A DNA stretch of 64,000 nucleotides from a virus (Duplodnaviria; Caudoviricetes). Shown here one piece after another: positions 133 to 31,786 of the stretch. The notes beneath the pieces are model-generated. The model did not search any database. It worked only from the letters and a program-made list of their open reading frames with translations, and was not told the DNA's origin. Within the stretch, counting starts at the first letter, position 1. Every line of letters begins with the position of its first letter. The stretch lies in IMG/VR virus record IMGVR_UViG_3300015607_001184, positions 4,082 to 68,081 of that record. The stretch is one strand, 5' to 3'. The position numbers were made by a program, and so were the translations under genes.

Positions 133-2904
133 ATGTCTGCTGACCTCGACTACCGTCACTCCCGTCTTGGCCTTGGCCAACTGGTCCCCGGGACGGAGCA
201 GGGCGACGAGCCCGCCATGATCATCGACATGGGCGATCAGGGCATGGGCGAGGTCCAGAAGAAGCCGGGATCGTCCACCGTCAAGATCGAGCACCCTGAC
301 GGGACCATCACCATCGCCTTCGGGCAGGTGAAGCCAAAGCGCGAGAAGGTGGGCTGGTTCGACAATCTGGTCGACGACATCGACGACGATCAGCTGGGCA
401 TCATCGCCAACAGGCTGGTGACGGCGATCCAGTCCGACGACGACAGCCGCAAGCAGTGGCTGGAGGACCGGGCGAGGGGCATCGAGCTTCTGGGCCTGAA
501 GCTGAACACGCCACGCGGCGATCTGGCGGCCTCCACGACGCTTCTGGAGGGCATCTCGCAGGTCAACCATCCGCTGCTGCTGGAGGCGGTCCTGCGCTTT
601 CAGGCGAACGCGCGCGGCGAGATGCTGCCCACCGACGGACCGGTCAAAATCCGGGTCGACGACCTCAACACGCAGCAGGCGCAGGCGCAGGTGGGCCACA
701 ATGGCGGCCCGCCCATGGCCGAGGACGACGACAGCGAGGCGCAGCTGCTGGAGACGGCGCTGAACCACTACCTGACCGCCGTCGCCAAGGAGTATGTGCC
801 AGACACGGACCGCATGCTGTTCATGCTCGGCTTCGGCGGATGCACCTTCAAGAAGGTCTACAATTGCCCGATCCGGCGCCGCCCGGTCAGCGAATCGGTC
901 GACGCGGTCAACATCATCGTCTCCAACGCCACCACGACGCTGGCGAATTGCGGGCGCATCACCCACGAGGTGAACATGCGCCCGTCGATCCTGAAGCGCA
1001 TGCAGATCATCGGGGCCTACCGGGACATTGATCTCGGCTACAATTCACAGTCGACGCCGAACGCCGCGCAGGACGCCGCGAACAGCGTGCAGGGCATCGA
1101 GGTCGGCAACCAGCAGCCGGAAGACGCCGACCGCACGCTCTGGGAGTGCTACTGCGAGCTGGACATCCCGGGCTTCGAACACAAGCACAAGGGCAAGATC
1201 ACCGGCCTGCCACTGCCATACGTCGTCACCATTGACAAGCTGTCTCAGCAAATCCTGTCGATCCGTCGCAATTATGAGAGAGACGACGACATGGCGATGC
1301 CGAAGACGTATTTCGTCAAATACTCATTCGTGCCCGGCATGGGCTTCTATGATCTGGGCCTGCTGCACATCCTTGGGAACACGACGAGCGCTGCAACGGC
1401 GGCGTGGCGCGAAATGCTGGACGCTGGCATGTTCGCCTCGTTCCCGGGCTTCCTCTACGCCAAGTCGGCGGCCAAGCAGCGGACGAACCAGTTCCGGATC
1501 CCGCCGGGCGGCGGTATGCCCATCGAGACGAATGGCATGGCGATCTCCGACGCAGTGATGCCGTTGCCCTATCGCGAGCCCGGCCCGGCATCGATGCAGC
1601 TGGTTGATAACATCACGCAGATGGGCCAGCGCGTCGGAGGCACTGCGGAGATCAATGTCGGCGAGGGCCGTCAGGACGCGCCGGTGGGCACGACCATCGC
1701 CCTGATCGAGCAGGCGACGAAGGTGCTCGACGCCGTCCACAAGCGCATGCACGCCTCGCAGGCCGAGGAGTTCCAGCTGCTCAAAGAGCGCTTTCAGGAG
1801 GATCCCGAGGCGCTCTGGCGGTTCGACAGGAAGATGGCGTCGATCTGGGATAAGGAGCGCTTCCTCAACGCCCTCAACAATGTCGACCTCGTCCCGCAGG
1901 CCGACCCGAACACGTCGAGCCAGATGATGCGCGTCATGAAGGCGGTGGCCATCAAGCAGCTGCAGGCGCAGAACCCGAACCTCTACGACCCCATCGCGGT
2001 CGACACCCGGGTGCTCAAGGTCATCGGCGTCTCCAACCCGGAAGCGCTGTTCACGCAGAACCAGCAGCAGAACACCGATCCGAACGCCGCCAAGGCGCAG
2101 GCCCAGATGGCCACGGCGCAGATCAACGCCCAGCAGAAAGACAACGCCCACATCCGCGAGCTGGCTTTCAAGGCGTCCGAGGCCGACAAGGATCGCATGC
2201 TGCAGGTGCAGGCGCAGCAGGCCAAGGATGCCCTGTCGGGAGCCCAGCTGCAGCAGAAGGTCGAGAGCGACGAAAGGGCCCATGCGCTGTCTGCCGCGCA
2301 GCTGGAGTCCAGCCACGGGCTGGCGCAGGCCGACCTCGCGATCAAGGACAAGGGGCTCGCCCTCGCCGCCCAGCAGCACGCCCAGACCGTGCAGGCGCAG
2401 CAGGACAAGACCATGGCCGATGCCCAGACCAAGGTCTTCACCAACGTGCAGGACAACAACACCGCCCTCACGCTCAACCGGGAGAAGATCCAAGGCGAGC
2501 TGGCGCAGCAGTCGCAGCAGATCGAGCACGACAATCAGCAGGGCGAGGCGGACCGGCAGTTCCAAGCCTCCCAGCACCACGAGGATCTGGCCTATCAGGC
2601 GCACGAGAGCGAGCAGGCGCGCCAGCACCAGAGCCGCGAGGCCGCAGAGGACCGCAGGCACGGCATCCACACGGCCGAGATGGGCCATGCCGTGGACGCC
2701 GCCAAGACCTCCTCGCAGCGTGATTTCGAGCGCGAGAAGATGGACATCCAGCACCAGCACGGCATGGAGCAGACCCGCGTGACGCAGGACCACGAGGCCC
2801 GCGAGGCCAAGGAGGATCGCAAGATCGCGGCGAAGAAGATCAATCAGGGCGGTCTGAAGAACGGAAAGGGCCTCGGTCGCGGCCCCAACCCGAGCAAGCG
2901 CTGA
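133..2904 (+). CDS. Portal protein (P22-like podovirus type) with long Gln/His/Ala-rich C-terminal tail
   Basis: Motifs HPLLLEAVLRFQA, TDRMLFMLGFGGCTFKKVY, FVKYSFVPGMGFYDLGL, APVGTTIALIE typical of this portal family; ORF track starts at 82 (GTG), ATG 133 or 217 more likely. Confidence 0.9.
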   Translation: MSADLDYRHSRLGLGQLVPGTEQGDEPAMIIDMGDQGMGEVQKKPGSSTVKIEHPDGTITIAFGQVKPKREKVGWFDNLVDDIDDDQLGIIANRLVTAIQSDDDSRKQWLEDRARGIELLGLKLNTPRGDLAASTTLLEGISQVNHPLLLEAVLRFQANARGEMLPTDGPVKIRVDDLNTQQAQAQVGHNGGPPMAEDDDSEAQLLETALNHYLTAVAKEYVPDTDRMLFMLGFGGCTFKKVYNCPIRRRPVSESVDAVNIIVSNATTTLANCGRITHEVNMRPSILKRMQIIGAYRDIDLGYNSQSTPNAAQDAANSVQGIEVGNQQPEDADRTLWECYCELDIPGFEHKHKGKITGLPLPYVVTIDKLSQQILSIRRNYERDDDMAMPKTYFVKYSFVPGMGFYDLGLLHILGNTTSAATAAWREMLDAGMFASFPGFLYAKSAAKQRTNQFRIPPGGGMPIETNGMAISDAVMPLPYREPGPASMQLVDNITQMGQRVGGTAEINVGEGRQDAPVGTTIALIEQATKVLDAVHKRMHASQAEEFQLLKERFQEDPEALWRFDRKMASIWDKERFLNALNNVDLVPQADPNTSSQMMRVMKAVAIKQLQAQNPNLYDPIAVDTRVLKVIGVSNPEALFTQNQQQNTDPNAAKAQAQMATAQINAQQKDNAHIRELAFKASEADKDRMLQVQAQQAKDALSGAQLQQKVESDERAHALSAAQLESSHGLAQADLAIKDKGLALAAQQHAQTVQAQQDKTMADAQTKVFTNVQDNNTALTLNREKIQGELAQQSQQIEHDNQQGEADRQFQASQHHEDLAYQAHESEQARQHQSREAAEDRRHGIHTAEMGHAVDAAKTSSQRDFEREKMDIQHQHGMEQTRVTQDHEAREAKEDRKIAAKKINQGGLKNGKGLGRGPNPSKR

Positions 2905-3359: not shown

Positions 3360-6300
3360 ACGCATTGATGGACCGCTTGCGCCAGTCTTATGGCGACGAC
3401 GCGGCGCGGCGTGTCGAAAGGGCGGCTGACGAGGTCCATGGCCTCGACCAACGCTACACAGACACGGCCCTTCATCATGCATTTGCAGGTAACGCGGATT
3501 CGGCGCTGGTCGCCATGAAGCCCGGCGATTTCGAGAAATACGCGGCTCGCCTGCCCGAGAAGGGCTATCCGGATTACGGCTATTTCGACTGGGATACGGG
3601 CGCCGACCTCGATTACGACCAGTACATGGACTACCTCAACACGATTGAGCACAGGGGCGGTCTGTCGGACGTGCCGTTCCTCAATGTCGGCCACGAGGAA
3701 GGCGCGGACCTGCCTTATGTCGGGGCTCATGAGGGGCGCCATCGCATGCGCGCCATGGCCAAGGCAGGCAAGCCGACGGGCCTCGTCATGATCCGCCCGT
3801 CGGGACGGCTGGAGGAGAGCCTCCGGCACGGGCCGACCTATGAGACGGCCTACCGCGATTCCAACCAGAAAAGGCAGGCCCTGCTGGATCACCTCGCGGC
3901 GCATGACCGCATGGTCTACCCGCAGAAAGAACGCGACAGGCAGGACGACATTCGCGGCCCGGAGCAGCTTCCGGAGGCCTTTTCCAAAGGCGGGATCACT
4001 GGGAAGCCCTCGACAGTGAAGATTCCCGGCCACGGCGAGATCGCGGCCGACGAGATCCCCGAGGTGATGGCGGCCAAGCGCTCCTATATGGGACACCGCT
4101 TCGGCGACCCGCGTAAGGCGGACATCGACGGCTATACGCCATTCGACGAAGCGCACGCCCGCAAGATCGCCGAGGCCTACGAGGCCATGCAGCACGCCCC
4201 GCACGATCCGGCCGTGCGGCGCTCCTACGAAGCCATGATCGACGAGACGCTCGACCAGTACCACGCGCTCAGGAACGCCGGATACGACTTCCATTTCATG
4301 CGCGACGGCGAGCCTGACCCCTACGCGGAATCGCCCGCGCTGGGCTATCTCGACGCCAAGGATGGCCGCCTGACGGTGTTCCCGACCGATCAGGGCTACG
4401 GCATGTCCATGCTCCACAGCGAGGAGATGAACCCGCTGCTGAAGCGCGTCGGCCGCATCGGCGACCTCGACAACGCCACGGCCAACGACGCCTTCCGGGC
4501 GGTCCACGATATGTTCGGCCACCACGGCCCGGGCAACCCGTTCTTCCGCCACAAGGGCGAGGAGCGGGCGTGGGAAGCGCATTCCAGAATGTACTCCGAC
4601 GACGCGCTCCCGGCGATGACCTCGGAGACGCGCGGCCAGAACAGTTGGCTGAATTTCGGCCCGCACGAGGAGTACAACCGCACCGCCAACGGCGCCGACA
4701 CGATCTATGCCGAGCAGAAGGCAGGCCTGATGCCGGAGTGGACGTGGCGCCGCCACAGGCGCGCCGACGGGGGCTCGATCCCCGGCCGCGAGCTGAACGA
4801 GCTTGGCATGTACTCCAAGGCTCTGGAGGAGGCCAAGGCGATCAGGCAGCCCAAGGGCAAGCTGTCCGATTTCCTGCGCTATCTGAAGGGCGGGCTGGAG
4901 GAGTTCCGGCGTGGCGGGTGGGTGGATCGCGGTGGCTATGCCCGGGGCGGCATCGCCGACTATCAGGACGAACTCGACAGCGCCAACCGCATGATGAGCC
5001 CGGACGAGGAGGGGCTTCTGGCCTATCCGCGCGACCGCTACATTGACCCACACTACCGCGTGGGGGCGCTCAAGGGCTGGACCTTGAACCCGAACCTGAG
5101 GCAGGACAGGTTCCTCGACTACCCCAGCGTCAACGACGACATCGGGGCGCCCTACTTCAACGGCTGGAACGAGAACAAGGGGCGCTTCCGCAACTACGCC
5201 GACGGCGGTGCGGTCGAGCGTGAGCATTTCGAATTCGGCGGCTTTCAGGACAACTCTCGCCCCGGGCAGGCGGGCGACCCGGGTAACTGGGGAGCGTGGG
5301 GCAATGGCACGGAGGACGTGTCGGTACGCGATGCGCAGGCAGCCGGGCTGCGGGCGGGCCTGTCACGCGCCGAAGTGGCCTACGGGCAGGTTCCCGGAGG
5401 TCTTGGCTACCGTGGGGGCAGTGGCACGAGCCTGACGAACCTCCCCGAGCTGAGCGCTGCCAACCTTGCGCGCGCTGGTATCTTCAACCCCGGCGAGCGC
5501 CGGGTGTCAGGAAACCCGGCGGACGCGGCGACGGGCATGGCGCAGCCGGGATCCGTCCGCGAGGCTCTTGGGCTCGGCAAGATGCCCGAGCAGACCCAGA
5601 CGCCGGAGCAGGCGGTGCAGCAGGTTGAGGCGCAGCGCAGGCAGGCTGCCGCCGCTTCCGACCCTTCCGGCTTCAACGGGCTGGCTGGCGGCACGGTGGC
5701 GCTGGCGGCCTTCGGCGCGCTGCCCGGGCAGCACAAGCCCGGCGAGGACATGACGACGCCTGCCGACACAGGGTTCATGTCGACGCCCGAGCAGAACAGC
5801 TACAACCGGTTCATGGACACCGCCCGCAACACCTACATGGAGGCGGGGAACCAGAGCGACGAGGGCATGCTGGGTGTCGCCTTCTCGGCGCCGAACCGCA
5901 CCGCCATCAATTATGGCGGCATTGGCCCCGGGGGCATCGACACCACCGGCTACAACGACCCCAATGCCTCGTTCGACGAGAACGTGACGCGGAATATCTA
6001 CGCCCCCAAACAATACAGCTGGACGAACCCGGCCCTGAACAGAAAGACCGGCGTGGTGAATGTCGACCGCGCTCGCGACATCGCCGACGCCGAAATGGCC
6101 GGGGCGCCGGATCGTGCGCAGCGTGCCTATGCGGCTGCCTATGCGCAGCAGTTCGGAGGGGCGACGGACCCGACCTATGGCGCCGTGTCCTACCACGCCG
6201 ACTATGTCAGCCCGGCGTGGCGCCGGGACGCAGCTTCGCTGGGGACGCCCACGGTCATTGGCGACCACACCTTCTACGGCGGCAGCCCGCCCACGGCCAC

Positions 6301-7795
6301 GCAGGTGGCGGGCCCCGGCGCAGCAAGCGTCCTGTCCACCATGGCGGACCCGTGGGGCTTCTCGCACATGACGCCGGTGAACGATCTGGCTACGGCGCCG
6401 CTGTCGTGGACGGACCGCATCGGCGCGCCCCCGGCAACACCTCTCGGTTCCCCGCGCACGCCCACTCCCGCCTCTGCCTACAGCGTGGGGGAGGATGCCA
6501 CGCCTCTCGGCTCTCCGCGCACGCCGACCCCGGCCACGGCCTATGCCCCGGAGGGCGCCACGCGCACATGGGCGAACCCGATTTCGGTGCCCTATTCCGA
6601 CCCCGGCTTCGAGCGCCCGGGCTACGACATCTCGGTCTATCAGGGCGTCCCGCTGGCCGACATCACGCCGGTGCGTCCTTCCGCGCCGACGCTCACGGAG
6701 CAGGCCTACAACCCGCTGTCGTCGATTCGTGCACCTTCCGTTGTCGACCCGTTCACGGCGAGGAAGGTGCAAACCGAAAGGATCTCGCCGCCCTCCGAGG
6801 AGCCCAGCTACACCCGGGCGCCCTATCACGACACGGTCTACGATGCGCCTGCCGCGACGGCAGCCGCCGTGGCGCGGCGCATGGGATGGCACGACAGCGT
6901 CTACGACGCACCTTCGGCACAGGCATCGCCGCTTGGATCCCCCCGCACGCCGACGCCCGCCAGCGCCTATGCCAGCCCCGAAGCGGCCCCGGCTGCCCCG
7001 GTGGCGCGCCCGGCGGCGCCTTACGGAACGCGCGGGAACCCCCTTTCGGCCGCAGACATGGCTGCCGTCGGGCTCGGCGACGCGACACCGGCGCAGCTGC
7101 GCAGCTATCGCGCCGATATCCCGCGCGGGTCCATGATCAGCTCTGACTCTCCGTACTATGGCACCCGCAACAACCCGTTGTCGGACGCCGACATGGCGGC
7201 TGCAGGCCTTGGCGACGAGCAGTCCTTCTCGAAGAAGTACCTCGGCTTCCGGTCGAACGACGAGGTCGATGCCGACAACAAGCCCTACAAGGATCCCGAG
7301 ACTGGCCAGTGGGTCGATCCGCGTTTCTCGCGCACGCCCGTCGGCATGGCGGCTCTCGGCCTTCTTGGGCTCGGCCTGACCGCCGTCTCGCCGCCGCTGG
7401 GCATCGCCTACGGCCTGTCGGCGCTCATGGGCAAAAGCCCCCTCATCAATGGCGCTGACAGGCTGGCCAGCCGCTTCGGCTTCGACGGCCGCACGACGAC
7501 TACGGATCCCAATGCACCGAGCGCGTGGGGCAGCCTGAAGAGCGGCGTGCAGGGCCAGTCTTACGCGCCCGGCTATGATGGCGCCGGGACAGGGCGCTCG
7601 CTGTCATCGTTCAACGGCAATAGCGGTGGAAACGGCTACAGAATGTACGACCCCGTTCCCGGGCCCGTTGCGAATCCAATCGATGTGAAGTCCAAGAAGA
7701 AGGCAGCGGAACCGAAACCGGAACCGGTCAGGCCCTCCGATTGGAATGACATGGCCTCGTGGCAGCAGGAACTCTGGAGTGACACCTATGGCTGA
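3341..7795 (+). CDS. Large multidomain (polyvalent) virion/internal protein: ParB-like domain, HDxxGH domain, SleB-type cell wall hydrolase, repeat tail
   Basis: ATG 3341 with GGAGG upstream (track start 3176 too early); HEGRHR motif, RAVHDMFGH..GEE motif, EA..GM..V..NR / QYSW / D.TYGAVSYHA.YV.P.W / IGDHTFY hydrolase motifs. Confidence 0.75.
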   Translation: MRRADLNALMDRLRQSYGDDAARRVERAADEVHGLDQRYTDTALHHAFAGNADSALVAMKPGDFEKYAARLPEKGYPDYGYFDWDTGADLDYDQYMDYLNTIEHRGGLSDVPFLNVGHEEGADLPYVGAHEGRHRMRAMAKAGKPTGLVMIRPSGRLEESLRHGPTYETAYRDSNQKRQALLDHLAAHDRMVYPQKERDRQDDIRGPEQLPEAFSKGGITGKPSTVKIPGHGEIAADEIPEVMAAKRSYMGHRFGDPRKADIDGYTPFDEAHARKIAEAYEAMQHAPHDPAVRRSYEAMIDETLDQYHALRNAGYDFHFMRDGEPDPYAESPALGYLDAKDGRLTVFPTDQGYGMSMLHSEEMNPLLKRVGRIGDLDNATANDAFRAVHDMFGHHGPGNPFFRHKGEERAWEAHSRMYSDDALPAMTSETRGQNSWLNFGPHEEYNRTANGADTIYAEQKAGLMPEWTWRRHRRADGGSIPGRELNELGMYSKALEEAKAIRQPKGKLSDFLRYLKGGLEEFRRGGWVDRGGYARGGIADYQDELDSANRMMSPDEEGLLAYPRDRYIDPHYRVGALKGWTLNPNLRQDRFLDYPSVNDDIGAPYFNGWNENKGRFRNYADGGAVEREHFEFGGFQDNSRPGQAGDPGNWGAWGNGTEDVSVRDAQAAGLRAGLSRAEVAYGQVPGGLGYRGGSGTSLTNLPELSAANLARAGIFNPGERRVSGNPADAATGMAQPGSVREALGLGKMPEQTQTPEQAVQQVEAQRRQAAAASDPSGFNGLAGGTVALAAFGALPGQHKPGEDMTTPADTGFMSTPEQNSYNRFMDTARNTYMEAGNQSDEGMLGVAFSAPNRTAINYGGIGPGGIDTTGYNDPNASFDENVTRNIYAPKQYSWTNPALNRKTGVVNVDRARDIADAEMAGAPDRAQRAYAAAYAQQFGGATDPTYGAVSYHADYVSPAWRRDAASLGTPTVIGDHTFYGGSPPTATQVAGPGAASVLSTMADPWGFSHMTPVNDLATAPLSWTDRIGAPPATPLGSPRTPTPASAYSVGEDATPLGSPRTPTPATAYAPEGATRTWANPISVPYSDPGFERPGYDISVYQGVPLADITPVRPSAPTLTEQAYNPLSSIRAPSVVDPFTARKVQTERISPPSEEPSYTRAPYHDTVYDAPAATAAAVARRMGWHDSVYDAPSAQASPLGSPRTPTPASAYASPEAAPAAPVARPAAPYGTRGNPLSAADMAAVGLGDATPAQLRSYRADIPRGSMISSDSPYYGTRNNPLSDADMAAAGLGDEQSFSKKYLGFRSNDEVDADNKPYKDPETGQWVDPRFSRTPVGMAALGLLGLGLTAVSPPLGIAYGLSALMGKSPLINGADRLASRFGFDGRTTTTDPNAPSAWGSLKSGVQGQSYAPGYDGAGTGRSLSSFNGNSGGNGYRMYDPVPGPVANPIDVKSKKKAAEPKPEPVRPSDWNDMASWQQELWSDTYG

Positions 7796-9467
7796 TCTCG
7801 GCAAGGGCATGAGGGACAGGGCTCGCCGCCTGACGGCTGACGAGAAGACCTCCGGAATGGTGACGGGGCCGGTGTGGGATAGCGAGGAGCCTGCTGGCCA
7901 GATGCCGAGCCGCTCCAAGTTCGCTCATGGCGGCAAGATCGCGATGGGCAAGAATGCAGCCAAGCGGCTTGACCAGTACGCCCGGGGCGGCGCGGTGAAG
8001 CGCAAGACCGGAAAGACCACGATCAACATCATCATCGGCGACAAGCAGGCCGCGCCACCGGCGCCACCGGCTGCCGTCGTGCCCCCTCCGATGCCTCCGA
8101 TGGCGCCGCCGATGGCGCCCCCCATTGACCCGACTGGCGGAGCCGGTCCCGGACCAGCAGCAATGCCGCCCGTCGGCCCGATGAATCGCGGAGGCTCCGT
8201 CGGCTTCAAGAAGGGCGGATGCGTGCGCCCCGGGCGCGCCTTCGGCGGGCGCACCGAGATCCGCTCGCAGGGGTCAGACCCGGAACCCGGAAAGAAGCAC
8301 CACAAGATTTCTGCCGCCAGCGCGCGTGGCCGCAAGGGCCTGAAGACAGGCGGATGCGCCGAACCTGACGCCGACGACCGACCGGCCCGCGTCAAGCGCT
8401 ACGCCGGTGGCCGTGTCGGCTATGACAGCGGCGGCGTTCTCATGGATGGGCCGCAGGAGGGCTACTACGAAGCCCCGGCATGGCTGCGCTGGCTGATGGG
8501 GCGCGGCGCGCAGGCCGCGCCGCAGGTCAACACCCGCGCCCCCTACCACGACACCGTCTATGACGCCCCTCCGCCGCCGCGCCCGCAGTACCTGCCGGAG
8601 AACTCGATGCGCCCGAGGCCCCCCACCATGCAGGGGCCTCAGACGGCGGTTCAGATGGCGGCCATCCGCGCTGCGCAGGAGGAGATGCTCCGCCGCGCTG
8701 CGGTCGCTGCCGCCGCCGCTAGGCAGCCGCCGCTGCCGTTGCGCCGCCCTGCTGACCTAGCGGCCAGCCCGTCCTTCATGCAGCGCTTCGTGTCTGGTCA
8801 GTGGACGGCACCGCAGATCGACACCGCGCGCACCTTCGCGCATGGCGGTCGCGTCGGGCGGGCTTTCGGTGGCCCGATGGGCTTCCCCGCCTCGGCGCAG
8901 TCCTCGTCCTCGTCCTCCACGTCGGCCTCGGCTGGCGGCGGGAACTGGGGCGGTGGATTCAGCAGACCGGCTCCGCAGATGCCGCAGGCCCCGCAGATGC
9001 CGCAGTACCAGCTGCAGGCTCCTCCGGGCTTCACCATGCAGAACATACCGACGCCTCCGGGCTGGACCGGACCGCAGATGCAGGCCCCGGTGTGGAACGG
9101 AATGCAAATTCCTCCGCAGATGCAGACGCCGCCGCAGATGCCGCAGATGTCCGCTCCGGGGCAGGGCGCCGTGCCAACGGGCGACCCGCAGGGCACGCCC
9201 ACGCAGGCCCAGCAGTTCGCCCAGCAGCTGATGGGCGGAGGGCGCAACTTTGCCCAGCAGGCCATGGCGCGCTGGGGGCAGGGCGCTCCGGGCATGGGCG
9301 CTGGGCGCTGGGGCGGCGGGCCCGGAAACTGGCACCGCCAGAGCGAAGTGCAGGGGTCTGGGGCGGCCCCGGGCGGGTTCAAGAAGGGCGGTGCCGTCCA
9401 CATGACCGCCGGATCCCGCAGCGGAGAGGGGCGGCTGCAGAAGGTGAAGCTGCAAAAAGGGTGCTGA
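7788..9467 (+). CDS. Low-complexity Pro/Gly/Gln/Met-rich protein with 11 xxxGG motifs, probable internal virion protein
   Basis: ATG 7788 with GGAG upstream, overlapping previous stop; composition and position in head module. Confidence 0.6.
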   Translation: MADLGKGMRDRARRLTADEKTSGMVTGPVWDSEEPAGQMPSRSKFAHGGKIAMGKNAAKRLDQYARGGAVKRKTGKTTINIIIGDKQAAPPAPPAAVVPPPMPPMAPPMAPPIDPTGGAGPGPAAMPPVGPMNRGGSVGFKKGGCVRPGRAFGGRTEIRSQGSDPEPGKKHHKISAASARGRKGLKTGGCAEPDADDRPARVKRYAGGRVGYDSGGVLMDGPQEGYYEAPAWLRWLMGRGAQAAPQVNTRAPYHDTVYDAPPPPRPQYLPENSMRPRPPTMQGPQTAVQMAAIRAAQEEMLRRAAVAAAAARQPPLPLRRPADLAASPSFMQRFVSGQWTAPQIDTARTFAHGGRVGRAFGGPMGFPASAQSSSSSSTSASAGGGNWGGGFSRPAPQMPQAPQMPQYQLQAPPGFTMQNIPTPPGWTGPQMQAPVWNGMQIPPQMQTPPQMPQMSAPGQGAVPTGDPQGTPTQAQQFAQQLMGGGRNFAQQAMARWGQGAPGMGAGRWGGGPGNWHRQSEVQGSGAAPGGFKKGGAVHMTAGSRSGEGRLQKVKLQKGC

Positions 9468-23038: not shown

Positions 23039-25102
23039 ATGGCATTCGGATCCCTTCGCCTTCGGCCGGGCGTGCAAGTTGAGGCGACGCCTGCCTTGAA
23101 CGAGGCGGGCGTCTCGGCAAGCCAGCTGATCCGCTTCCGCGACGGCCTGATCGAGAAACTGGGCGGCTGGACCAAATATTATGGCTACCCGTCCAGCGGG
23201 AAGATCCGGCACCTGCATGCATGGCAGGATCTGACGAAGGTCGGGCGCCTCGCCATCGCGGCCGAGCAGTCTCTGGTGTCGGCATCGAGCACCACGACGG
23301 GCGTCACCATCACGCCGCAGCGAACCACCTCGTCGATTGCCGTGGCCCTGTCGACCGTCAACGGGTCCCCCACGGTCACGGTGACCGACAACGCCTCCAA
23401 CATGACGACCAATGACGTGGTCGTCTTCCAGACGCCTGTCTCCGTCGGCGGCCTGATCATCTTCGGCGCCTATGCCGTCGCATCGAGCATCAGCGCGAAC
23501 CAGTACACGATCACGGCCACGGATCTGGTGCAGGGGTCGCCGACCTATGGCCAACCAAAGAACGCCACGTCGACCGTCGTCTCCGGCGGCGCGGTGCCAT
23601 CCTTCGCCACCACCAACGGCTCCTTCGAAGTCACGGTGACGCTGAACAACCATGGCCTGACGACGCCGGGCCAGATCGTCGCCTTCCCAGTGTCGACCAC
23701 CGGCGGCGGCGTGACGATCTACGGCACCTATTCGGTGATCACCGTCCCGGGCGCCAACACGTTCACGATCTATGTCTCCAACTCGGCCTCGTCGACGACG
23801 ACCTTCTCGATGAACGCCGGAAACGCCTATCTGGACCGCTGGATCGCCGTCGGCCCGGGAGCGGCCGGTTCGGGCTACGGCATCGGCGGCTATGGGTCCG
23901 GCGGCTACGGAACCGGTTCCCCGACGCCGGGCCACACCGGCACGCCGATCACCGCGACCGACTGGGATCTGGATAACTGGGGATCGTATCTGCTGGCGCA
24001 ACCTGCGCAGGGCCCGTGCTTCTGGTGGGACCCCGTCGGCGGCTTCCAGACGATGCGCATCATCACGAACGGGCCGATGATCGGAACCGGCATGTTCGTC
24101 GCCATGCCGCAGCGGCAGATTGTCGTCTACGGCGCCGAGCTGGGCGGCTATCAGGACCCGCTTCTGGTGCGCTGGTGCGACGTGGACGACTTCTCAAATT
24201 GGATCGCGTCCACGACCAATCAGGCGGGCTCCTACCGCATCCCGCGCGGATCCGGCATCATCTCCGGCATCCAGACATCCCAGCAGGCCCTGCTGTGGAC
24301 GGACCTTGCCCTGTGGTCGATGCAGTACCTCGACGGCCTCCTTGTATGGGGCTTCAACGAGATCGGCGCCGGGTGCGGCATCATCTCCAAGAAGGCCCGG
24401 GCCGCGCTTGGAGGGACCGTCTACTGGATGGGGCGCTCGCAGTTCTTCCGTTACTCGGGGTCTGGCGTCGAGCCGGTGGATTGCTCGGTTTGGGACGTGA
24501 TTTTCCAAGACCTAGACACCGACAACGCCAGCAAGATCCGCATGGGCGCGAACTCGATGTTCAACGAGATCGTGGTCTATTACCCATCCCTCTCCGGCGG
24601 AACGGGCGAGAACGACAAATATGTGAAGCTGAAGGCGACGACCGGAGAGTGGGACTACGGCACCCTCGCGCGCACGGCATGGATCGACCAGAACGTCCTT
24701 GGCCAGCCCTTTGGCGCCGGGACGGACGGTTTCACCTACCAGCACGAGAGCGGGCGCAACTCCGACATCAACGCCATGACCAGTTGGTTCGAAACGGGCT
24801 GGCTCATGCTCAACGAGGGCGAGCAGTTCACCTTTGTCGACTGGCTGCTGCCCGACTTCAAATGGGGGCTCTACAACGGGTCGCAGGACGCCGACATGCT
24901 GATCACGGTCAGCTGGGTCGAGTACCCTCAGGATGCGCCAAAGTCAGCCGGTCCATTCACGGTGACGCAGCTGACGCAGGCCATCACCGACATCCAGTTC
25001 CGTGCCCGGATGGTCAAGTTCAGGATCGAGTCGCAGGACATCAATTCGTTCTGGCGCATTGGCAACGTGCGCTACCAGTACGCCCCAGATGGAACGTGGT
25101 GA
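23039..25102 (+). CDS. Tail hub / packaged-DNA stabilisation protein (P22 gp10-like)
   Basis: IRFRDG..EK.GGW, DNWGSYL, LLVRWCD, AGSYRI..GS.I, WTD.AL.SMQY, YWMG..QFF.Y.G..V..VDC.V.D. Confidence 0.8.
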   Translation: MAFGSLRLRPGVQVEATPALNEAGVSASQLIRFRDGLIEKLGGWTKYYGYPSSGKIRHLHAWQDLTKVGRLAIAAEQSLVSASSTTTGVTITPQRTTSSIAVALSTVNGSPTVTVTDNASNMTTNDVVVFQTPVSVGGLIIFGAYAVASSISANQYTITATDLVQGSPTYGQPKNATSTVVSGGAVPSFATTNGSFEVTVTLNNHGLTTPGQIVAFPVSTTGGGVTIYGTYSVITVPGANTFTIYVSNSASSTTTFSMNAGNAYLDRWIAVGPGAAGSGYGIGGYGSGGYGTGSPTPGHTGTPITATDWDLDNWGSYLLAQPAQGPCFWWDPVGGFQTMRIITNGPMIGTGMFVAMPQRQIVVYGAELGGYQDPLLVRWCDVDDFSNWIASTTNQAGSYRIPRGSGIISGIQTSQQALLWTDLALWSMQYLDGLLVWGFNEIGAGCGIISKKARAALGGTVYWMGRSQFFRYSGSGVEPVDCSVWDVIFQDLDTDNASKIRMGANSMFNEIVVYYPSLSGGTGENDKYVKLKATTGEWDYGTLARTAWIDQNVLGQPFGAGTDGFTYQHESGRNSDINAMTSWFETGWLMLNEGEQFTFVDWLLPDFKWGLYNGSQDADMLITVSWVEYPQDAPKSAGPFTVTQLTQAITDIQFRARMVKFRIESQDINSFWRIGNVRYQYAPDGTW

Positions 25103-25153: not shown

Positions 25154-25363
25154 ATGCTTAATGACCTCGTGACCGCTTTGAAAAATGCAGTAACGGCCAT
25201 ATCGTTAATCAATCAGACGCTGCGCAGCGTCTTCCCCTACGCCACGGGGACATCATCGACCGCAACAGCCGGTGCCGCATCGCTTCCGGCAAATCCGGTC
25301 GGCTTCATCACGATCACCCTTCCCGACGGCACGTCGGCGAAGGTGCCGTACTACAACACTTGA
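25154..25363 (+). CDS. Small tail protein
   Basis: C-terminal LPANPVGFITI..G...KVPYY motif seen in phage tail proteins; RBS AAGGA. Confidence 0.55.
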   Translation: MLNDLVTALKNAVTAISLINQTLRSVFPYATGTSSTATAGAASLPANPVGFITITLPDGTSAKVPYYNT

Positions 25364-25370
25364 GGGCGGC

Positions 25371-27971
25371 ATGGCTGACGATTTCACAGAAGACCTCGCC
25401 TCGACCGCCGATCTGGCAGACGCCACCACGTCTGACGAGCAGCATCGCATGGAGATCGAGCGAGCCAAGCGCCGCACGATCAAGACCGTCTCGCTGACCG
25501 ACAACGAGAAGGCGCTGCTAGACCGCGTGGCCGACAAGAACCAGCGCAAGAAGATCGCGGAATCGATTAAGAGGACCAAGGGCCGTTTCCCGGTGTCGGA
25601 GGGCTGGGCCGCACCGGAAGCGAGCAAGCTGGTCACCAACAAGGCGGGTGAGCTGAAGACCGACAAGAGCGGGACGCCAAAGATCGGCTACAAGGGCATC
25701 GGCTTCAACTACGACCGCGACGACGCCGGAAAGAAGCTGCAGCGCTACACGCCGGAGTACGACCGCGCCGTCAAGGCGGTAACCAACCGGGCGCTGAACG
25801 AGATCCGTAAGACAATCGCGCGCGCCGAGGCCGGTGACCTGAATGCCCAGAAGACGCTGCGGCAGGTCGGCTGGTATCGCGAGGCGATGAAACGCGAGAT
25901 CGACCGGCGCGGCGGTGCCCACATGGCCTTCGCCGACCTGCTCGGGGCGACATCCCCAAACACCGTCGTCTCGGAGAACTATAAGCTGGCCGACCTTGCC
26001 CAGCAGGGCCACGCACGGGGCGACTTCGACGCACAGAACGAGTTCATGGCCCGGTACAACGGCAACATGAACGACTACCCTGAAGATCAGCTGATCAGAA
26101 AGAAGAGCGGGGCCCAATTCGGCATGAACAGCCGAACCGCCTCCATGGCGATGACTGACCGCTGGTCGCAGGAGGAGCCCGGGCAGGCACCCAAGGCGCG
26201 CAATTTCTCCGGCAACCTGTCGGGCCGCTCGGACAAGGCCACCATCGATGTGTGGGCGGCGCGCTTCCTCAACCGCATGGCCCAAAAGGCCCGCGTCCCG
26301 GTGCCGTCGCAGATGGGCGTCGAAGGCGACATGCGCCCTGACAGACCCGACCGCAAGATGGTCGGCCCGGTCCGGCTGCGCGCCTCCGGTGAGTTCGGCT
26401 TCGGGCAGGACGTGTTCGACATGCTGGCCAAGCGCCTGAAGACGACAGGCGAGCTGGCGCCATACCTGAAAGAGCTTGGCTACAAGCACGCCACGCCAGC
26501 CGACCTGCAGGCGCTGACGTGGTTCATCGAGAAAGAGCACTGGGCCAAGAACGACTGGACCTCAGCGGCAGGCGAGGGTGGCTCATTCGAAGATGAGCAG
26601 GCGCGCCAGCCCTTGCACCGCTATCAGGCAGGGTTCTCGATCCAGCAGGACGCGCCGCCGAGCGACGAAATGATGCACGAGGCCGCCCAGCACATCCACA
26701 ATGGGTTGGCGAGCGACGACAAGGTGCGCGTCTTCCGCGTCAATCCGACCTATGGCCGGTACGGCGGCGAGAACGAGCGCAGTTTCGACTCCGAGGTCAC
26801 CGCGCACCCGGACTGGGATCCGAGCGACTGGATGATCCGTCATCTGGAGCTGGCCAAGCAGCACAACCAGAAGGACGTGTTTTTCTCACGCCGCCTCGAC
26901 CCGGAGGAGGCCGACGAGCACCCCAACGCGCGCCCGGGCGTCGAGATCTATTTCAAGAACCGCAAGGCCATGGAGGCGGCCCAGCCGGTCCTCGACAGGT
27001 TCACGAACAAGGGCATTGACGGCTTCACCTACATCACCGACCTGCGTCACTCCCACCGCACCGCCAAGGGCGCCGACAGCAAGGACTACGTCGGCGTCAG
27101 GCTGCAGTGGGTGCCGGAGATCTCGCAGCGCTGGGACGACGAATTGCGCGACCGCTGGGAGCAGGATCCAGAGGCCCTGAAGGCCGACAAGATGGACGCT
27201 CTGGAGCGCATGCAGGACGTGATTCACCATCTTGATAAGCATAAGCACGGCATTGTTGACGCACGCATCCATAATTATGATACAGTGGTATCTGGGAAAG
27301 AGGACTACGATGACCACATCCGTGAACTCAGAGAAGCCCAGCGCACATCTGGAAATGCTGCGGGAGCAGCTCGCACGGTCGCTCCGCAAGTACGGGGAGG
27401 ACTCTCTCTCCACGAGAACATTGCGCGCCGAAATCGCGCGCTTCGAACGGCGGAGGAAGGAGGGTCGTCAGGACCACCACCAGCACTGGACGGCGGGCCG
27501 GACCTGAAATTCAAGAAGGGCGGCAAGGTCCCGCCCTACGAGCCGGGGTCGCCGATCCACCATCCGGTGGCCGACGATCCTATCATCATTGGCGCCATCG
27601 AGAGCGACGTGCCCGGCAGGACCGACAAGCACGAGTGCTCGGTCCCCGCCGGTTCCTACGTCATCCCCGCTGACGTGGTGAGCGCGCTCGGCCAAGGCAA
27701 CACCTTGGCTGGGCAGCGGGTGCTTGACCAGCGCTTCCGGCAGGGCCAGCACGGCCTCCCCGACATTCATGCCCACATGGCCAGAGGCGGCCCCGCCACG
27801 ACGGTCCCCGTCGTTCTGGCGGGTGGCGAGTATGTCGTCGCCCCGGCAGCCGTGGCGCGCGCTGGTATGGGCAACCTTGACCGGGGGCACCGGGCGCTCG
27901 ACAAGTTCGTGCGAGCAACCCGCGCCAAGACCGTGAAGACGCTGCGCAAACTGCCTCCGCCGAAGAAGTGA
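25371..27971 (+). CDS. Polyvalent internal/ejection protein: helical DNA-acting domain, SAM-lyase-like domain, tandem GEYV domains
   Basis: ATG 25371 after GAGGG; motifs GWY, LLGATSP, KARNFSGNL.G..ATIDVWAAR; GRY..ENERSF..LAKQHNQKDVFF; GRTD...GSYVIPADVV..LG and GGEYVV. Confidence 0.7.
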   Translation: MADDFTEDLASTADLADATTSDEQHRMEIERAKRRTIKTVSLTDNEKALLDRVADKNQRKKIAESIKRTKGRFPVSEGWAAPEASKLVTNKAGELKTDKSGTPKIGYKGIGFNYDRDDAGKKLQRYTPEYDRAVKAVTNRALNEIRKTIARAEAGDLNAQKTLRQVGWYREAMKREIDRRGGAHMAFADLLGATSPNTVVSENYKLADLAQQGHARGDFDAQNEFMARYNGNMNDYPEDQLIRKKSGAQFGMNSRTASMAMTDRWSQEEPGQAPKARNFSGNLSGRSDKATIDVWAARFLNRMAQKARVPVPSQMGVEGDMRPDRPDRKMVGPVRLRASGEFGFGQDVFDMLAKRLKTTGELAPYLKELGYKHATPADLQALTWFIEKEHWAKNDWTSAAGEGGSFEDEQARQPLHRYQAGFSIQQDAPPSDEMMHEAAQHIHNGLASDDKVRVFRVNPTYGRYGGENERSFDSEVTAHPDWDPSDWMIRHLELAKQHNQKDVFFSRRLDPEEADEHPNARPGVEIYFKNRKAMEAAQPVLDRFTNKGIDGFTYITDLRHSHRTAKGADSKDYVGVRLQWVPEISQRWDDELRDRWEQDPEALKADKMDALERMQDVIHHLDKHKHGIVDARIHNYDTVVSGKEDYDDHIRELREAQRTSGNAAGAARTVAPQVRGGLSLHENIARRNRALRTAEEGGSSGPPPALDGGPDLKFKKGGKVPPYEPGSPIHHPVADDPIIIGAIESDVPGRTDKHECSVPAGSYVIPADVVSALGQGNTLAGQRVLDQRFRQGQHGLPDIHAHMARGGPATTVPVVLAGGEYVVAPAAVARAGMGNLDRGHRALDKFVRATRAKTVKTLRKLPPPKK
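27310..27507 (+). CDS. Overprinted 65-aa protein in +1 frame inside the 25371-27971 gene
   Basis: GAGGA 6 nt before ATG; GC-ending codons in this frame; helical sequence LREQLARSLRKYGEDSLSTRTLRAEIARFE. Confidence 0.55.
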   Translation: MTTSVNSEKPSAHLEMLREQLARSLRKYGEDSLSTRTLRAEIARFERRRKEGRQDHHQHWTAGRT

Positions 27972-28029
27972 CGGGATAGCGAATCCGTGCGCGCTCGTGC
28001 ATGCATGTGATGCCGATCTGGGGAAGCGA

Positions 28030-28512
28030 ATGGTCGACTACGCCACAGAGGTCCGTCTCGCGGTCCAGTCCGACGAAGAGGACATCATGGTCCTGTGCCG
28101 GTTACTCCACAAGGAGAACGGCCTGTGGACGCTCAACGAGCAAAAGGTGCGCCATATGCTTCGGCGCGCGTGGCGTAAAGAATTTGCCATTGTCGGAATT
28201 GTCGGGAAACCCGGCGCCCTTGAGGGCATGATCTTGCTGGTGCTCGACCAGCCTTGGTACTCGGACGACTGGATGCTTGAGGAGATGCTCAACTACGTTC
28301 ACCCGGAGCATCGCAAGTCGGGCCACGCGAAGCGCCTTGTCGAGTTCGCGAAGAAGACATCGGAGGGGCTTGGTATCCCTCTGATGATCGGCATCATCTC
28401 AAATGAGCGCACGGAAGCGAAGGTAAAGCTGTACCAGCGGCAACTGGGAAGCCCGGCTGGAGCCTTCTTTGTCTACGGAGCCCGAACGGGCGACGTGGGG
28501 GCGGAGCACTGA
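28030..28512 (+). CDS. GNAT-fold acetyltransferase preceding ejection proteins
   Basis: PWYSDDWMLEE..YVHPEHRKSGHAKRLVEFAK acetyl-CoA motif A. Confidence 0.75.
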   Translation: MVDYATEVRLAVQSDEEDIMVLCRLLHKENGLWTLNEQKVRHMLRRAWRKEFAIVGIVGKPGALEGMILLVLDQPWYSDDWMLEEMLNYVHPEHRKSGHAKRLVEFAKKTSEGLGIPLMIGIISNERTEAKVKLYQRQLGSPAGAFFVYGARTGDVGAEH

Positions 28513-28513
28513 C

Positions 28514-31500
28514 ATGGGTTCGAAGAGCAGCAAGCCGACCACCACGGTAACTCAGGCCGGGATCCCCGACTACCTGAAGAAGAATTACGAGACGCTGACC
28601 AAGGCGGCGACCAAACTGGCGACGCAGCCATTCAACCCGTACAAGGGCGAGATGGTCGCGGGCCTGACGGCGGCTCAGGAGCAGGCCATCGCCCGCATGG
28701 GCGAAATTCAGGGCATTGGCGACCCGTATTTTCAGGCTGGCGCAGACGCGCTGAGCAAAGTCGGGCAGTTCACCGACAAGGCGCTGGAATACGGCGACAA
28801 GGCGCTAACCTACACCGACAAGGGGTCGCAGTACGGGGCGACCGCCGCAGAGATCGCGGGCGACCTCCGGAACACGCAGATCACGCCCATCGAGTGGAGC
28901 CAAGAACAGCTCGACAAGTACATGAATCCCTATCAGGCCGAGGTCATTCGGGCTACGATGGGGAACATCGCCGAGAACAACGCCCAGCAGATGCAGGGCC
29001 TCATCGGCAACGCCATTTCCAAGGGCGCATGGGGCGGCGACCGGGCAGGCATCGCTCAGGCCGCCATGGCGCGCCAGCAGGATTTGGCGGCAAACCAGAC
29101 GCTGGCGCAGCTCAACGCGCAGAACTACCAGCAGGCGATGGCGCAGTTCAACGTGCAGCAGCAGGTTGACTTGCAGCGGCAGCAGGCCAATGCGGCCCTG
29201 AAGGCGCAGGCTGGCGGCATGTACACGGGCCTTGGCGGCCTGCAGGCACAGCTGGGTGGCGTGACCGGCCAGCTGGGGAGCATGGCGGCGCAGCTCGGGC
29301 AGGTGCAGGCTGGCGTCGGATCTGCCTATGGCTCTCTCGGCACGGGCATCTCACAGGCGGCGATCAATCAGGCCATGGGCCTTCTGCAGGCGGGGACCGT
29401 CGAGCAGCAGACCAATCAGGCCTACGACAATGCCCAGTATCAGGAGTTCATGCGCAGGCAGCAGTTCCCGTACCAGCAGCTTGGCTTCCTGTCGAACATC
29501 TACTATGGCCTCCCGGCGACCAACACCGGCACTTCGTCGACTTACGCTCCGGCCCCGTCCATGGGGTCGCAGATCGGTGGCGCGCTGCTCACCGGCCTTG
29601 GCGCCCTGTCTGACCGGCGGGCGAAGAAAGACATCGAGGGCCTCGGCCAGCTGAACGGCCATAACCTGTACAAATTCAAGTACAAGGGCGATCCGGACGA
29701 GCGCGAGCAGGTCGGCTTCATGGCCGACGAGGTCGAGAAGACGCACCCCGAAGCCGTCTCGGTGCGCCCCGACGGCCTGAAGCAGGTCAATTACGCTCTC
29801 GCCATGGCGGCCAAGTCTGCCGACGAGGTGACCCGCCAGAAGCGCGCATTTGGCGGCGGCCTCGGCGTCATGGACGATCCGTCCTTCGACCCCACCGCCG
29901 GAGGGTTCTCCGGCGTCGAGATGCCTCTGGATCGGCTGGCCCGGGCGCGCGCTGCGACCTCGGCAATCGAGTCCGGCGGGCGCTATGACGCTCTCGGCCC
30001 CATGGTGAAGGGCGACCGCGCCTATGGCCGCTATCAGGTCATGGGCAAGAACATTCCCAGCTGGACGGAGATGTATGCCGGGCGCCGCATGACGCCGGAC
30101 GAGTTCCGCGCCGACAAGGGGGCTCAAGACGCGGTCTACAACGGTCGCATGGGGATGTATCTCGACAAGTACGGCCCGGAGGGCGCCGCCCGGGCGTGGT
30201 TCACAGGATCCCCGACGGGCAAGGGCTCGGATGGGTACACCAGCGCCGACGACTACGCCTCCCGGTTCATGAAGGGGTACAACGGCGGAAACGCCGACAT
30301 CCCGCGCGGGGAGGAGGCGTCTTACACGCCGCCCGCTTCGGCCAATGATGGGTCCGATTTCAAGGGCGGTCTGGGCTGGTTCGACAAGCCGGGGCTGCTG
30401 ACCGGGGACATGATGTCGGGCGACATCCGCATGGGCCTCATGCAGGCTGGCGCGGCCATGATGGCTTCCAAGAGCCCCTATGCCGGGCAGGCGATTGGCG
30501 AGGGGCTGCAGTCCGGCCTTGGCGCCTATGCGGAGCTGCAGGAGAAGCGCCGCCGGGATGCTCTGGCGCAGTCGCAGATTGCCCACAGCAAGGGCGCACT
30601 GGGTCTGGCCGAGCGGCGGCTCAGTGCGGAAGTTCCGGAGATCGAAGCAAGGACCGCCGAGCTGAAACAGCGCACTGCGGCAGAGCGTTGGGATATTCGC
30701 CCCGGGCTCACTGGTTGGCAGGTCATCGACAGGACCAACCCGCAGGCTGGCGCTGTGATGGTGCCGTTTGGCGGACGATTCCCCGATGGCACAAAAGCCC
30801 CTCCCGCACCGGCTGGAGCATCGCCTGCCGGTGGCGGAGGCGCGGGCGGGGCTCCTACATCCCCTCCGGCTTCGCCCGCGCCAACCGCGCCCGCCGCGAC
30901 CACCGACCCAACGTCGGAATCCGGCAACCATTACGATCCGATCACCGGCAATGTGCGCCCCGGCCTGCCGCAGGACGGCTTCGCGCCGCCGCCCGCGCGC
31001 AGCGAGCCCGGCATCACCGAGATGGACCACAACGGCAACCGCTATCTGTCGGACGAGCCCGACGATCTGGCTCAGCCGGAGCAGTACCCGACCAACCCGC
31101 AGGCCTTCAACCCGGAAGCGCAGCCGGGCCTGTTGGCGGCGGGGCGCGAACAGTTGATGGCCGGGCAGGAAGCGGCCGAGAAGGCGCAGCAGGCCAAGAT
31201 CACCGCGCAGAACATGCGCGAGGCCATGTCGATCTTGAACAGCAATCGCTTCACCAAGGGCGGCGCAAATTTCGAGGAGAGGCTTGCGCTGGTGAAGAAG
31301 ATCAACATGATCGCTAACCTGATGGGCAAGCAGGCGCCCTACCAGAACGAGGAGGCGGCAGCCAACTCGCTGCAGAAGGACACGTTCCGCATGGGCATGC
31401 AGGCGCTGCAGTCGCTGGCGGGCGGCCAGCGCGAGGCGGGCTTCATGCAGCAGGCTGGCATCGGCGCCGTACCCAATGGCGAGCAGAACGGGCTTGGCCA

Positions 31501-31786
31501 GCAGCGCCTTATGGCGTCGCTGGAGGTGCAGTCACAGCGCATGATCGACATGCAGCGCTTCCGCGAGCAATGGGCGCGGGGGACCGGCGGCGACCTGACC
31601 GGCGCCGACAGCTACTTCAACCAGAAGCGGCCACCTTCCTACTACGCCCGCAAGACGGTGCTCCTGTCGGTGCCGCAGCCCGCCATCGCCGAACTGATGG
31701 CCGACCCCACCCCGTCCAAGATGCGTATCTTTGACAGCCATTTCGGCGCTGGGACTGCCCGACTTATCGTGACAGGGGGGCATTGA
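28514..31786 (+). CDS. DNA ejection/pilot protein with internal S74-type autocleavage domain and lysozyme-like domain
   Basis: TTTVTQ..IPDYLK, YMNPYQ, GAWGG.R, Q.PYQQLGFLSN; LSDRRAKKDI..YKFKYK..GFMADEVEK..P.AV; AIESGGRY..AYGRYQVM. Confidence 0.78.
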   Translation: MGSKSSKPTTTVTQAGIPDYLKKNYETLTKAATKLATQPFNPYKGEMVAGLTAAQEQAIARMGEIQGIGDPYFQAGADALSKVGQFTDKALEYGDKALTYTDKGSQYGATAAEIAGDLRNTQITPIEWSQEQLDKYMNPYQAEVIRATMGNIAENNAQQMQGLIGNAISKGAWGGDRAGIAQAAMARQQDLAANQTLAQLNAQNYQQAMAQFNVQQQVDLQRQQANAALKAQAGGMYTGLGGLQAQLGGVTGQLGSMAAQLGQVQAGVGSAYGSLGTGISQAAINQAMGLLQAGTVEQQTNQAYDNAQYQEFMRRQQFPYQQLGFLSNIYYGLPATNTGTSSTYAPAPSMGSQIGGALLTGLGALSDRRAKKDIEGLGQLNGHNLYKFKYKGDPDEREQVGFMADEVEKTHPEAVSVRPDGLKQVNYALAMAAKSADEVTRQKRAFGGGLGVMDDPSFDPTAGGFSGVEMPLDRLARARAATSAIESGGRYDALGPMVKGDRAYGRYQVMGKNIPSWTEMYAGRRMTPDEFRADKGAQDAVYNGRMGMYLDKYGPEGAARAWFTGSPTGKGSDGYTSADDYASRFMKGYNGGNADIPRGEEASYTPPASANDGSDFKGGLGWFDKPGLLTGDMMSGDIRMGLMQAGAAMMASKSPYAGQAIGEGLQSGLGAYAELQEKRRRDALAQSQIAHSKGALGLAERRLSAEVPEIEARTAELKQRTAAERWDIRPGLTGWQVIDRTNPQAGAVMVPFGGRFPDGTKAPPAPAGASPAGGGGAGGAPTSPPASPAPTAPAATTDPTSESGNHYDPITGNVRPGLPQDGFAPPPARSEPGITEMDHNGNRYLSDEPDDLAQPEQYPTNPQAFNPEAQPGLLAAGREQLMAGQEAAEKAQQAKITAQNMREAMSILNSNRFTKGGANFEERLALVKKINMIANLMGKQAPYQNEEAAANSLQKDTFRMGMQALQSLAGGQREAGFMQQAGIGAVPNGEQNGLGQQRLMASLEVQSQRMIDMQRFREQWARGTGGDLTGADSYFNQKRPPSYYARKTVLLSVPQPAIAELMADPTPSKMRIFDSHFGAGTARLIVTGGH

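Follow-up and report, generated by a model that had tools for sequence, protein, structure and literature searches.

What is the function of two tandem GG-GE(Y/F)V units at the very end of a large protein encoded by a phage that has no tape measure? The question is raised by a stretch of 64 kb (hereafter, the window) that forms part of the 68,081-bp IMG/VR virus record IMGVR_UViG_3300015607_001184, which is rated 100% complete. The open reading frame (ORF) concerned spans bases 25368-27971 of the plus strand, starts with an ATG located five bases past the stop codon of a small upstream ORF, and encodes a protein of 867 amino acids (aa). Bases 27510-27971 are in frame with it and encode its last 153 residues, from the F of the first GG motif at 27510 to the stop codon at 27969-27971. 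This C-terminal part, referred to below as the module, occurs once in the whole 68,081-bp record; a second copy was looked for and not found. The module is a compact, internally duplicated C-terminal domain, whose core of about 125 residues is followed by a long basic helix and then by the free tail L-P-G-P-K-K, and we propose with moderate confidence that it docks swappable cargo into the virion for ejection.

A duplicated C-terminal domain behind exchangeable N-termini

The preliminary description of this DNA had noticed two tandem copies of one module, each preceded by a GG motif, and this observation was borne out. The two halves, named here unit 1 and unit 2, were aligned by BLASTP with 12 identities out of 30 positions (E 0.003), and the profiles of both units, derived from an alignment of 43 homologous C-termini from IMG/VR loci (alignment A1), matched each other with 96% probability over 35 columns (E 1.8e-9). 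These results confirmed that the two-copy repeat is genuine and far beyond chance. AlphaFold2 (AF2), run on A1, yielded a model with an overall predicted local distance difference test (pLDDT) score of 79 and values >90 within the two units, which both show the same strand-strand-helix-helix pattern. In the numbering of fragment P0001 (bases 27480-27968, 163 residues), which is used here for all positions within the module, unit 1 is predicted to form strands 51-56 and 60-62 and helices 64-70 and 75-87 (pLDDT >90), and unit 2 strands 108-113 and 118-120 and a helix 122-128, the long C-terminal helix being placed at 133-156. A second AF2 model, that of a 162-aa stand-alone relative, reached a pLDDT of 91.6 and contained identical elements plus an N-terminal two-helix DUF6496 hairpin.

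All 43 sequences are identical at YVIPADVV, at the second G of the unit-2 GG motif, at GE and at one D, one R and one P. Within the unit-2 GG motif, G103 is present in at least 90% of these sequences and G104 in all of them. The unit-1 GG motif is the majority consensus of the 43 modules, is invariant in 69 long relatives, and is missing from some short stand-alone forms. The spacer that separates GG from the glycines just ahead of the unit-2 GE has a median length of 11 residues and a range of 5-36 (181 proteins).

When a profile of the module was searched against 1.84 billion representative proteins, 9,052 clusters were retrieved at E ≤0.001 and 1,377 at E ≤1e-30, counted at 50% identity. 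The module ends at most five residues from the C-terminus in 187 out of 189 retrieved proteins, with a conserved K-T-L-K-K-L-P-G-P-K-K-(D) ending. The proteins that carry it range from 123 to about 1,400 aa. In the short forms (123-235 aa) the module is found alone or behind a DUF6496 hairpin. In 69 long forms, a Pfam tally revealed ART-PolyVal (5), LPD23 (4), DUF6496 (4), InPase (3), DUF7178 (3) and SLT (2) domains and, once each, NUDIX, Peptidase_M15_4, ADPrib_exo_Tox, LysM, GDSL lipase and PG_binding_1. Several of these cargo families are signature domains of virion-delivered polyvalent proteins (PMC5512222).

Four close relatives have in common the N-terminal hairpin up to A-(D/G)-G-G and the C-terminal ~200 residues, the middle being unrelated. 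Because close relatives keep both ends and differ wholly between them, the module can be described as the constant end of a cassette-swapping gene. The N-terminal ~700 aa of the 867-aa protein constitute the variable cargo, where DUF7178 (residues 165-306, Pfam) is the sole domain recognised; its same-module relatives carry ART-PolyVal, LPD23, InPase, NUDIX, SLT, M15 or GDSL domains. Its orthologues comprise a protein of 866 aa with 99% identity and another of 858 aa with 81% identity. A search of the ESM Atlas with the N-terminal part returned DUF7178 clusters only, under the trust threshold. Concerning the DUF6496 hairpin, we observed that in many module proteins it stops exactly at A-D-G-G (e.g., at 3940-4425 of locus L030), and that tiny stand-alone DUF6496 proteins of 43-70 aa appear among the BFVD matches in Burkholderia phages BcepF1 and BcepNY3 and in Ralstonia phage RSB1.

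There is also a group of single-unit relatives, which includes gp065c of Caulobacter phage GB2A (E 5e-16 against the single-unit hidden Markov model) and proteins of Planktothrix and Synechococcus phages. The unit is located at their C-terminus with GG motifs on both sides, and they are encoded in the same structural region of the genome as the module gene. They differ from the two-unit module in having one unit and no L-P-G-P-K-K ending. The tape measure label of GB2A gp065c probably derives solely from its C-terminal GG-GEYV unit, the PHROG tape-measure matches of this group being weak.

The gene order in the window is portal, p1539, p573, major head protein, two SU10-type adaptors, a 687-aa nozzle, the module gene, a GNAT, a 1105-aa ejection protein, a 1038-aa protein, a collar fibre and an endolysin. 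The phage is a podovirus, and it has no tape measure, the latter as the preliminary description had stated. We surveyed synteny in 78 related IMG/VR loci, some of which are near-duplicates of one another. A nozzle homologue ends within 2.5 kb upstream of the module gene in 63 of the 72 testable loci. On the other side, in 51 of 70 loci the GNAT gene begins no more than 350 nt past the module gene, always ahead of the ejection protein gene, and an ejection-protein homologue is found downstream in 48 of 70. Across a large clade of environmental podophages the module gene keeps its place in the order adaptor, adaptor, nozzle, module gene, GNAT, ejection protein. This fixed slot, together with a two-unit module at the terminal position in podophages, is what is new here. 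The homologues of the nozzle are annotated as P22-type stabilization proteins, and one of them has been detected in the particle proteome of Sinorhizobium phage phiM5.

Relation to lambda-type tape measures and search for catalysis

It had been proposed that the module resembles the C-termini of siphovirus tape measures. The resemblance was recovered, weakly, for lambda gpH (64-88% probability in hhalign) and did not extend to the tape measures of HK97, SPP1 and TP901-1, none of which matched the module profile. The A1 profile aligned with gpH residues 726-772 in register with unit 2 and its GG motif (5.3 bits, E 0.001 for this single pre-specified protein), the aligned element of gpH (~733-772) consisting of a GG motif (FATGG), a 12-residue spacer, a GEFV hairpin and G-x-GN. 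A tblastn search with gpH 690-853 retrieved 1,044 phage records, and for many of the T1-like and Webervirus phages the match is confined to gpH ~745-788, at 75-85% identity. When A1 was compared by hhalign with an alignment of eight diverse tape-measure units (A2), the probability was 64.5% (E 6.3e-5, 39 columns), and with unit 2 alone it was 84% (E 7.6e-6). A column-shuffle run gave 88% for unit 2 against the tape-measure unit, a score reached by 1 of 200 shuffles. Unit 1 alone was not significant (2%; 5 of 200 shuffles reached its score). The profile of the single-unit relatives matched unit 1 with 99.4% and unit 2 with 98.2% probability and bridges the module and tape-measure groups; one single-unit protein (locus L067) matched a tape-measure PHROG with E 9e-5. 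The comparisons point weakly to a short element common to the module and lambda-type tape measures, and both homology and convergence would fit it.

Lambda gpH matches the family models TIGR01541, PF06791 (TMP_2) and PF09718 (Tape_meas_lam_C), the GG-GEFV element itself being covered by no Pfam model. Neither the module nor the whole 867-aa protein matched any of these three models in searches of Pfam (E up to 10) and NCBIfam (E up to 1). Moreover, the module gene is not located between a tail chaperone and gpM/gpL-type tip genes, its neighbours being the SU10-type adaptors, the nozzle, the GNAT and the ejection protein. Given the lack of any family-model match, the different gene context and the fact that a single element is shared, we rejected that the module is a member of the tape-measure family. 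A general tape-measure homology was rejected as well, on account of the three unmatched tape measures and the result with unit 1.

The element of gpH (~725-793, inside TIGR01541) shares with the module an aromatic-A-x-GG motif, a spacer, a hairpin with the invariant G-E-(F/Y)-V, a short helix and a G-x-G(N/D) turn; a second Y-A-x-GG often follows it, and the protein that carries it, close to the C-terminus, moves down the tail channel in front of the DNA. Unlike the module, the lambda-type tape measure has one unit, which is not terminal and is followed by ~60 more residues and a gpI-binding helix, whereas the podophage module has two units and its own terminal helix and tail, and belongs to a podovirus without a tail tube. 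The fragment gpHC (~14 kDa) is cut off gpH in a Gly-rich region, the GG-GEFV element being located just after the cut region, and the catalyst of this cut is not known (PMC12617516). The part of gpHC that has been resolved is limited to residues 818-849, which bind gpI in the tail tip (PMC10721106, PMC12617516). Among solved PDB entries, the tape-measure unit is carried by the lambda tape measure alone, where it is unmodelled. The likeness of the module to the element beside the gpH cleavage site offers a mutable target for studying gpH processing and the role of the unresolved part of gpHC.

The module had also been suggested to recognise or cleave GG motifs in trans, which the searches for a catalytic function did not support. 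No family was found for the module in Pfam or NCBIfam, and PHROGs gave weak matches only. Sequence searches of the PDB, with the single sequence and with the profile, returned nothing meaningful. In the fold searches, Foldseek found no credible match for the module models in the PDB (best E 1.8), the wide VIA-align search reached at best Z 3.1 for the module (a Z of 5.2 obtained with the second model corresponds to the N-terminal helical hairpin only), and the BFVD matches consisted solely of uncharacterised phage proteins that bear this module and of the tiny DUF6496 proteins. None of these searches (Pfam, NCBIfam, PHROGs, PDB sequences or folds) matched a peptidase family or fold. In addition, there is no invariant catalytic nucleophile or triad, since each position with Ser, Thr or His is substituted in one member or another and no Cys is invariant. 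Ala replaces the Ser of G-S-Y-V in roughly one sequence out of four, several sequences have Ala or Leu in place of the Thr of GRTD, and four have lost the His of GH..LD. The GG motifs, finally, are fixed in cis within the module.

An autoproteolysis of the SEA type (G-S-V-V-V) at G-S-Y-V was considered and rejected, because the Ser is so often Ala. The duplicated strand-helix-'GD' pattern also led us to consider a barrel made of two beta-beta-alpha-beta halves, of the AbrB/SpoVT-like swapped-hairpin, double-psi or another cradle-loop type. This idea was not borne out, the units being predicted as a hairpin plus two helices, and no barrel proteins appeared in the fold searches of both models. 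A literature search for the GG-GE(Y/F)V motif found nothing.

GG motifs and the function of the module

The abundance of GG motifs in other proteins was analysed by comparing the counts of aromatic/Met-x-x-GG with those of residue shuffles. The phage had been said to contain many GG-tagged internal proteins, which holds for p573 (7 motifs vs 1.45 expected, p 0.0005) and p1539 (7 vs 2.15, p 0.0065) and fails for the 1105-aa and 1038-aa proteins, neither of which is enriched. The 867-aa protein has two GG motifs, a count that is not significant (p 0.11), yet the second motif is evolutionarily invariant. In three other complete module-bearing genomes the enriched genes are the module gene itself, an ejection protein gene and a cargo gene, and in lambda gpH is the sole enriched protein. 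Short p573-like GG proteins were found in three of five other module-bearing genomes. In one genome (G002, C1:13228-15751; locus L007 7834-10390), a separate cargo gene encodes a 583-aa protein that ends Y-N-T-G-G-A-V... and contains ParB-like and ART-like motifs, read by eye; it is followed by a small V-P-Y-Y ORF and by a gene for a 175-aa stand-alone module protein with a DUF6496 N-terminus. All this would be compatible with a motif that characterises proteins passing through the tail, and, at an anecdotal level, GG may be a general mark of proteins leaving by that route. As separate observations, p573 and p1539 contain no GEYV unit, and T7 gp6.7 ends S-A-F-G-G-K-K while T7 gp7.3 contains A-R-A-G-G-K-K (locus L094, 565-831 and 1236-1535); this T7 case is also anecdotal. 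Both T7 proteins are small virion proteins ejected at infection.

The strict C-terminal position of the module, its fixed gene slot and the exchangeable N-termini argue for an anchoring role. From its context, the 867-aa protein is most likely a virion protein. We infer that the module would dock it into the virion, either in the nozzle/tail channel or in the internal stack of ejection proteins, so that the cargo would be packaged and would later exit through the tail at infection, a parallel being the C-terminal tape-measure fragment held in the siphophage tail tip. The GG motifs would be part of the unit, as a turn or hinge before the first strand, and would mark the joints of cargo exchange. 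The element of the module would be either anciently shared with lambda-type tape measures or convergent on their GG-GEFV element. Everything N-terminal of the module is exchangeable cargo, which may be absent, be limited to a short DUF6496 hairpin or exceed 1000 residues; in the long forms it contains ADP-ribosyltransferase, NUDIX, pyrophosphatase, lysin, lipase or uncharacterised domains, here DUF7178.

Several observations weigh against this docking function. AlphaFold predicts a globular monomer, which does not readily suggest a plug or a coiled coil. Among GenBank phages the two-unit module was present in two uncultured records only, and in no cultured phage. The nozzle also occurs in the cultured phage phiM5, accompanied by a small GNAT-like ORF and by the genes of the internal proteins, but not by a module gene. 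Because phiM5 has the cassette and lacks the module gene, the module is not essential to this tail type and represents an addition to the cassette rather than a universal component. The similarity to tape measures is also short (22-39 columns), and when all six frames of the complete lambda genome were scanned, the best match, gpH, had an E value of only 0.06-0.1. We note separately that the small GNAT-like ORF of phiM5 sits at the GNAT position even in the absence of the module gene.

Other functions can be envisaged for the module. It could be a structural plug or needle analogue that seals the nozzle in the slot of P22 gp26, the N-terminal parts being external tip domains instead of ejected effectors. 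Its gene comes directly after a gp10-like gene, and some of the cargo is directed to the cell wall (SLT, M15 peptidase, LysM, PG_binding, GDSL). In the P22 gene order, the slot is that of the needle and ejection genes past gp10; it follows the gp10-type hub gene directly and precedes the genes of the ejection proteins gp7, gp20 and gp16, and the products are expected to be the first to leave the virion. However, much of the cargo is directed to the cytoplasm (ART-PolyVal, NUDIX, InPase, ParB-like), no trimeric coiled-coil needle is predicted, and the module has no sequence or predicted fold similarity to gp26 or the ejection proteins, from which it also differs in its variable, enzymatic cargo. 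The polarity is opposite too, given that the conserved plug end of gp26 is the N-terminal one. We consider that a needle analogue is quite unlikely.

A processing in cis, in which the GG motifs would be cleavage sites and the hairpin unit would position or trigger a cut at assembly that frees the cargo from its C-terminal anchor inside the virion, would account for the invariant unit-2 GG and recalls the lookalike element of gpH, immediately C-terminal of a Gly-rich region that is cut by an unknown catalyst (PMC12617516). It would also explain that conservation between close relatives breaks exactly at the GG motifs, but the same break is equally expected of a recombination joint or a flexible hinge. 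As none of the Ser, Thr, Cys and His residues is invariant and the searches matched neither a peptidase family nor a peptidase fold, such processing is conceivable but unlikely. A more speculative version of it, which we regard as rather improbable, is that the hairpin unit with its flanking GG motifs is of ancient origin and acts as a junction triggered by assembly or as a self-processing element, common to the tape measures of siphophages and the ejection proteins of podophages. The unit would keep the protein in the tail channel, its GG joints would serve both as cut sites and as joints of cargo exchange, and a stand-alone module could capture cargo ending in GG; if true, it could explain the cleavage of gpH into gpH* and gpHC. 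Finally, the module might act as a reader in trans that binds or cuts x-x-x-GG on other virion proteins, recruiting or processing them. The enrichment of p573 and p1539, the p573-like proteins of other genomes, the cargo gene ending in GG ahead of a stand-alone module gene in G002, and the many modules that are stand-alone proteins are all in line with this function. Nevertheless, the motif is a short one, Gly-rich linkers occur frequently, enrichment was not observed in the internal proteins of 1105 and 1038 aa, the module always has its own GG in cis, as does gpH, and the arguments against a protease apply here as well. A reader in trans is very unlikely.

A docking domain for swappable cargo has known counterparts. 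A constant virion-incorporation domain with polymorphic injected cargo is a known strategy, and this unnamed and very common module would represent a new form of it. The MuF / SPP1 gp7 head-incorporation domain is likewise a constant domain combined with changing enzymatic effectors and encoded among late structural genes (PMC5512222), and MuF-type polyvalent proteins and module proteins share ART-PolyVal, LPD23, InPase and NUDIX cargo. In contrast to MuF, to which it is unrelated in fold and sequence, the module, whose incorporation into virions is presumed, is C-terminal, and its gene is located beside nozzle and ejection genes instead of the portal. As with the polyvalent proteins (Iyer et al., 2017), the module gene lies among portal, head, adaptor, nozzle, ejection and fibre genes. 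The module flags a hypervariable cargo gene in widespread environmental podophages, and it makes it easier to find and annotate a large hidden repertoire of probably injected enzymes. If the module were sufficient for incorporation, it could provide a handle for loading proteins into laboratory phages.

Coordinates and neighbouring genes

Table 1. Parts of the module gene, neighbouring genes of the window and the single-unit relative of phage GB2A. Positions are those of the window unless a locus is named; residues are those of fragment P0001.
Feature	Position	Strand	Residues	Basis or remarks
Module gene, 867-aa protein	25368..27971	+		ORF call, start codon
First GG motif, F-K-K-G-G, 5' of unit 1	27510..27524	+	11-15	Translation; majority consensus of 43 modules
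Unit 1: GRTD loop, predicted beta-hairpin around invariant YVIPADVV, two helices with G-x-GN turn	27609..27737	+	44-86	Conserved columns, AF2
Second GG motif, M-A-R-G-G, 5 residues ahead of unit 2 in the 867-aa protein	27777..27791	+	100-104	Conservation in 43 sequences
Unit 2: predicted beta-hairpin with invariant GE (GGEYV), helix, G-x-G(N/D) turn, GH..LD opening the long C-terminal helix	27804..27911	+	109-144	Duplication, AF2, hhalign
Basic end of the long C-terminal helix and terminal Pro-rich L-P-x-P-K-K tail, protein end	27912..27968	+	after unit 2	AF2, C-terminal position in 187/189 proteins
Portal	82-2904			
p1539, 1539 aa	3176-7795			Hydrolase_2 (SleB-type) cell-wall hydrolase domain at residues 931-1034 of the protein
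p573, 573-aa Gly-rich protein	7746-9467			
687-aa P22-gp10-like nozzle/hub ('phage stabilization protein')	23039..25102	+		phrog_3287; homologue annotations
GNAT acetyltransferase	27997..28512	+		Pfam, PHROG
1105-aa DNA-ejection protein, Peptidase_S74 and lysozyme-like part	28469..31786	+		phrog_4287, PF13884
GB2A gp065c	locus L080, 7507-9249			Annotated as tail length tape measure; cassette looks podovirus-type

The small ORF located just upstream of the module gene (25154-25363) encodes 69 aa and has a conserved ending, L-P-A-N-P-V-G-F ... V-K-V-P-Y-Y-N. ORFs with the same L-P-A-N-P-V-G-F/V-P-Y-Y ending occupy the same place in loci L007, L028 and L044.

The Peptidase_S74 domain (endosialidase intramolecular chaperone) of the 1105-aa ejection protein is found at residues 381-430, between the phrog_4287 N-terminal part and the lysozyme-like part. 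This placement suggests a putative trimeric N-terminal piece that would cut itself off the rest of the protein.

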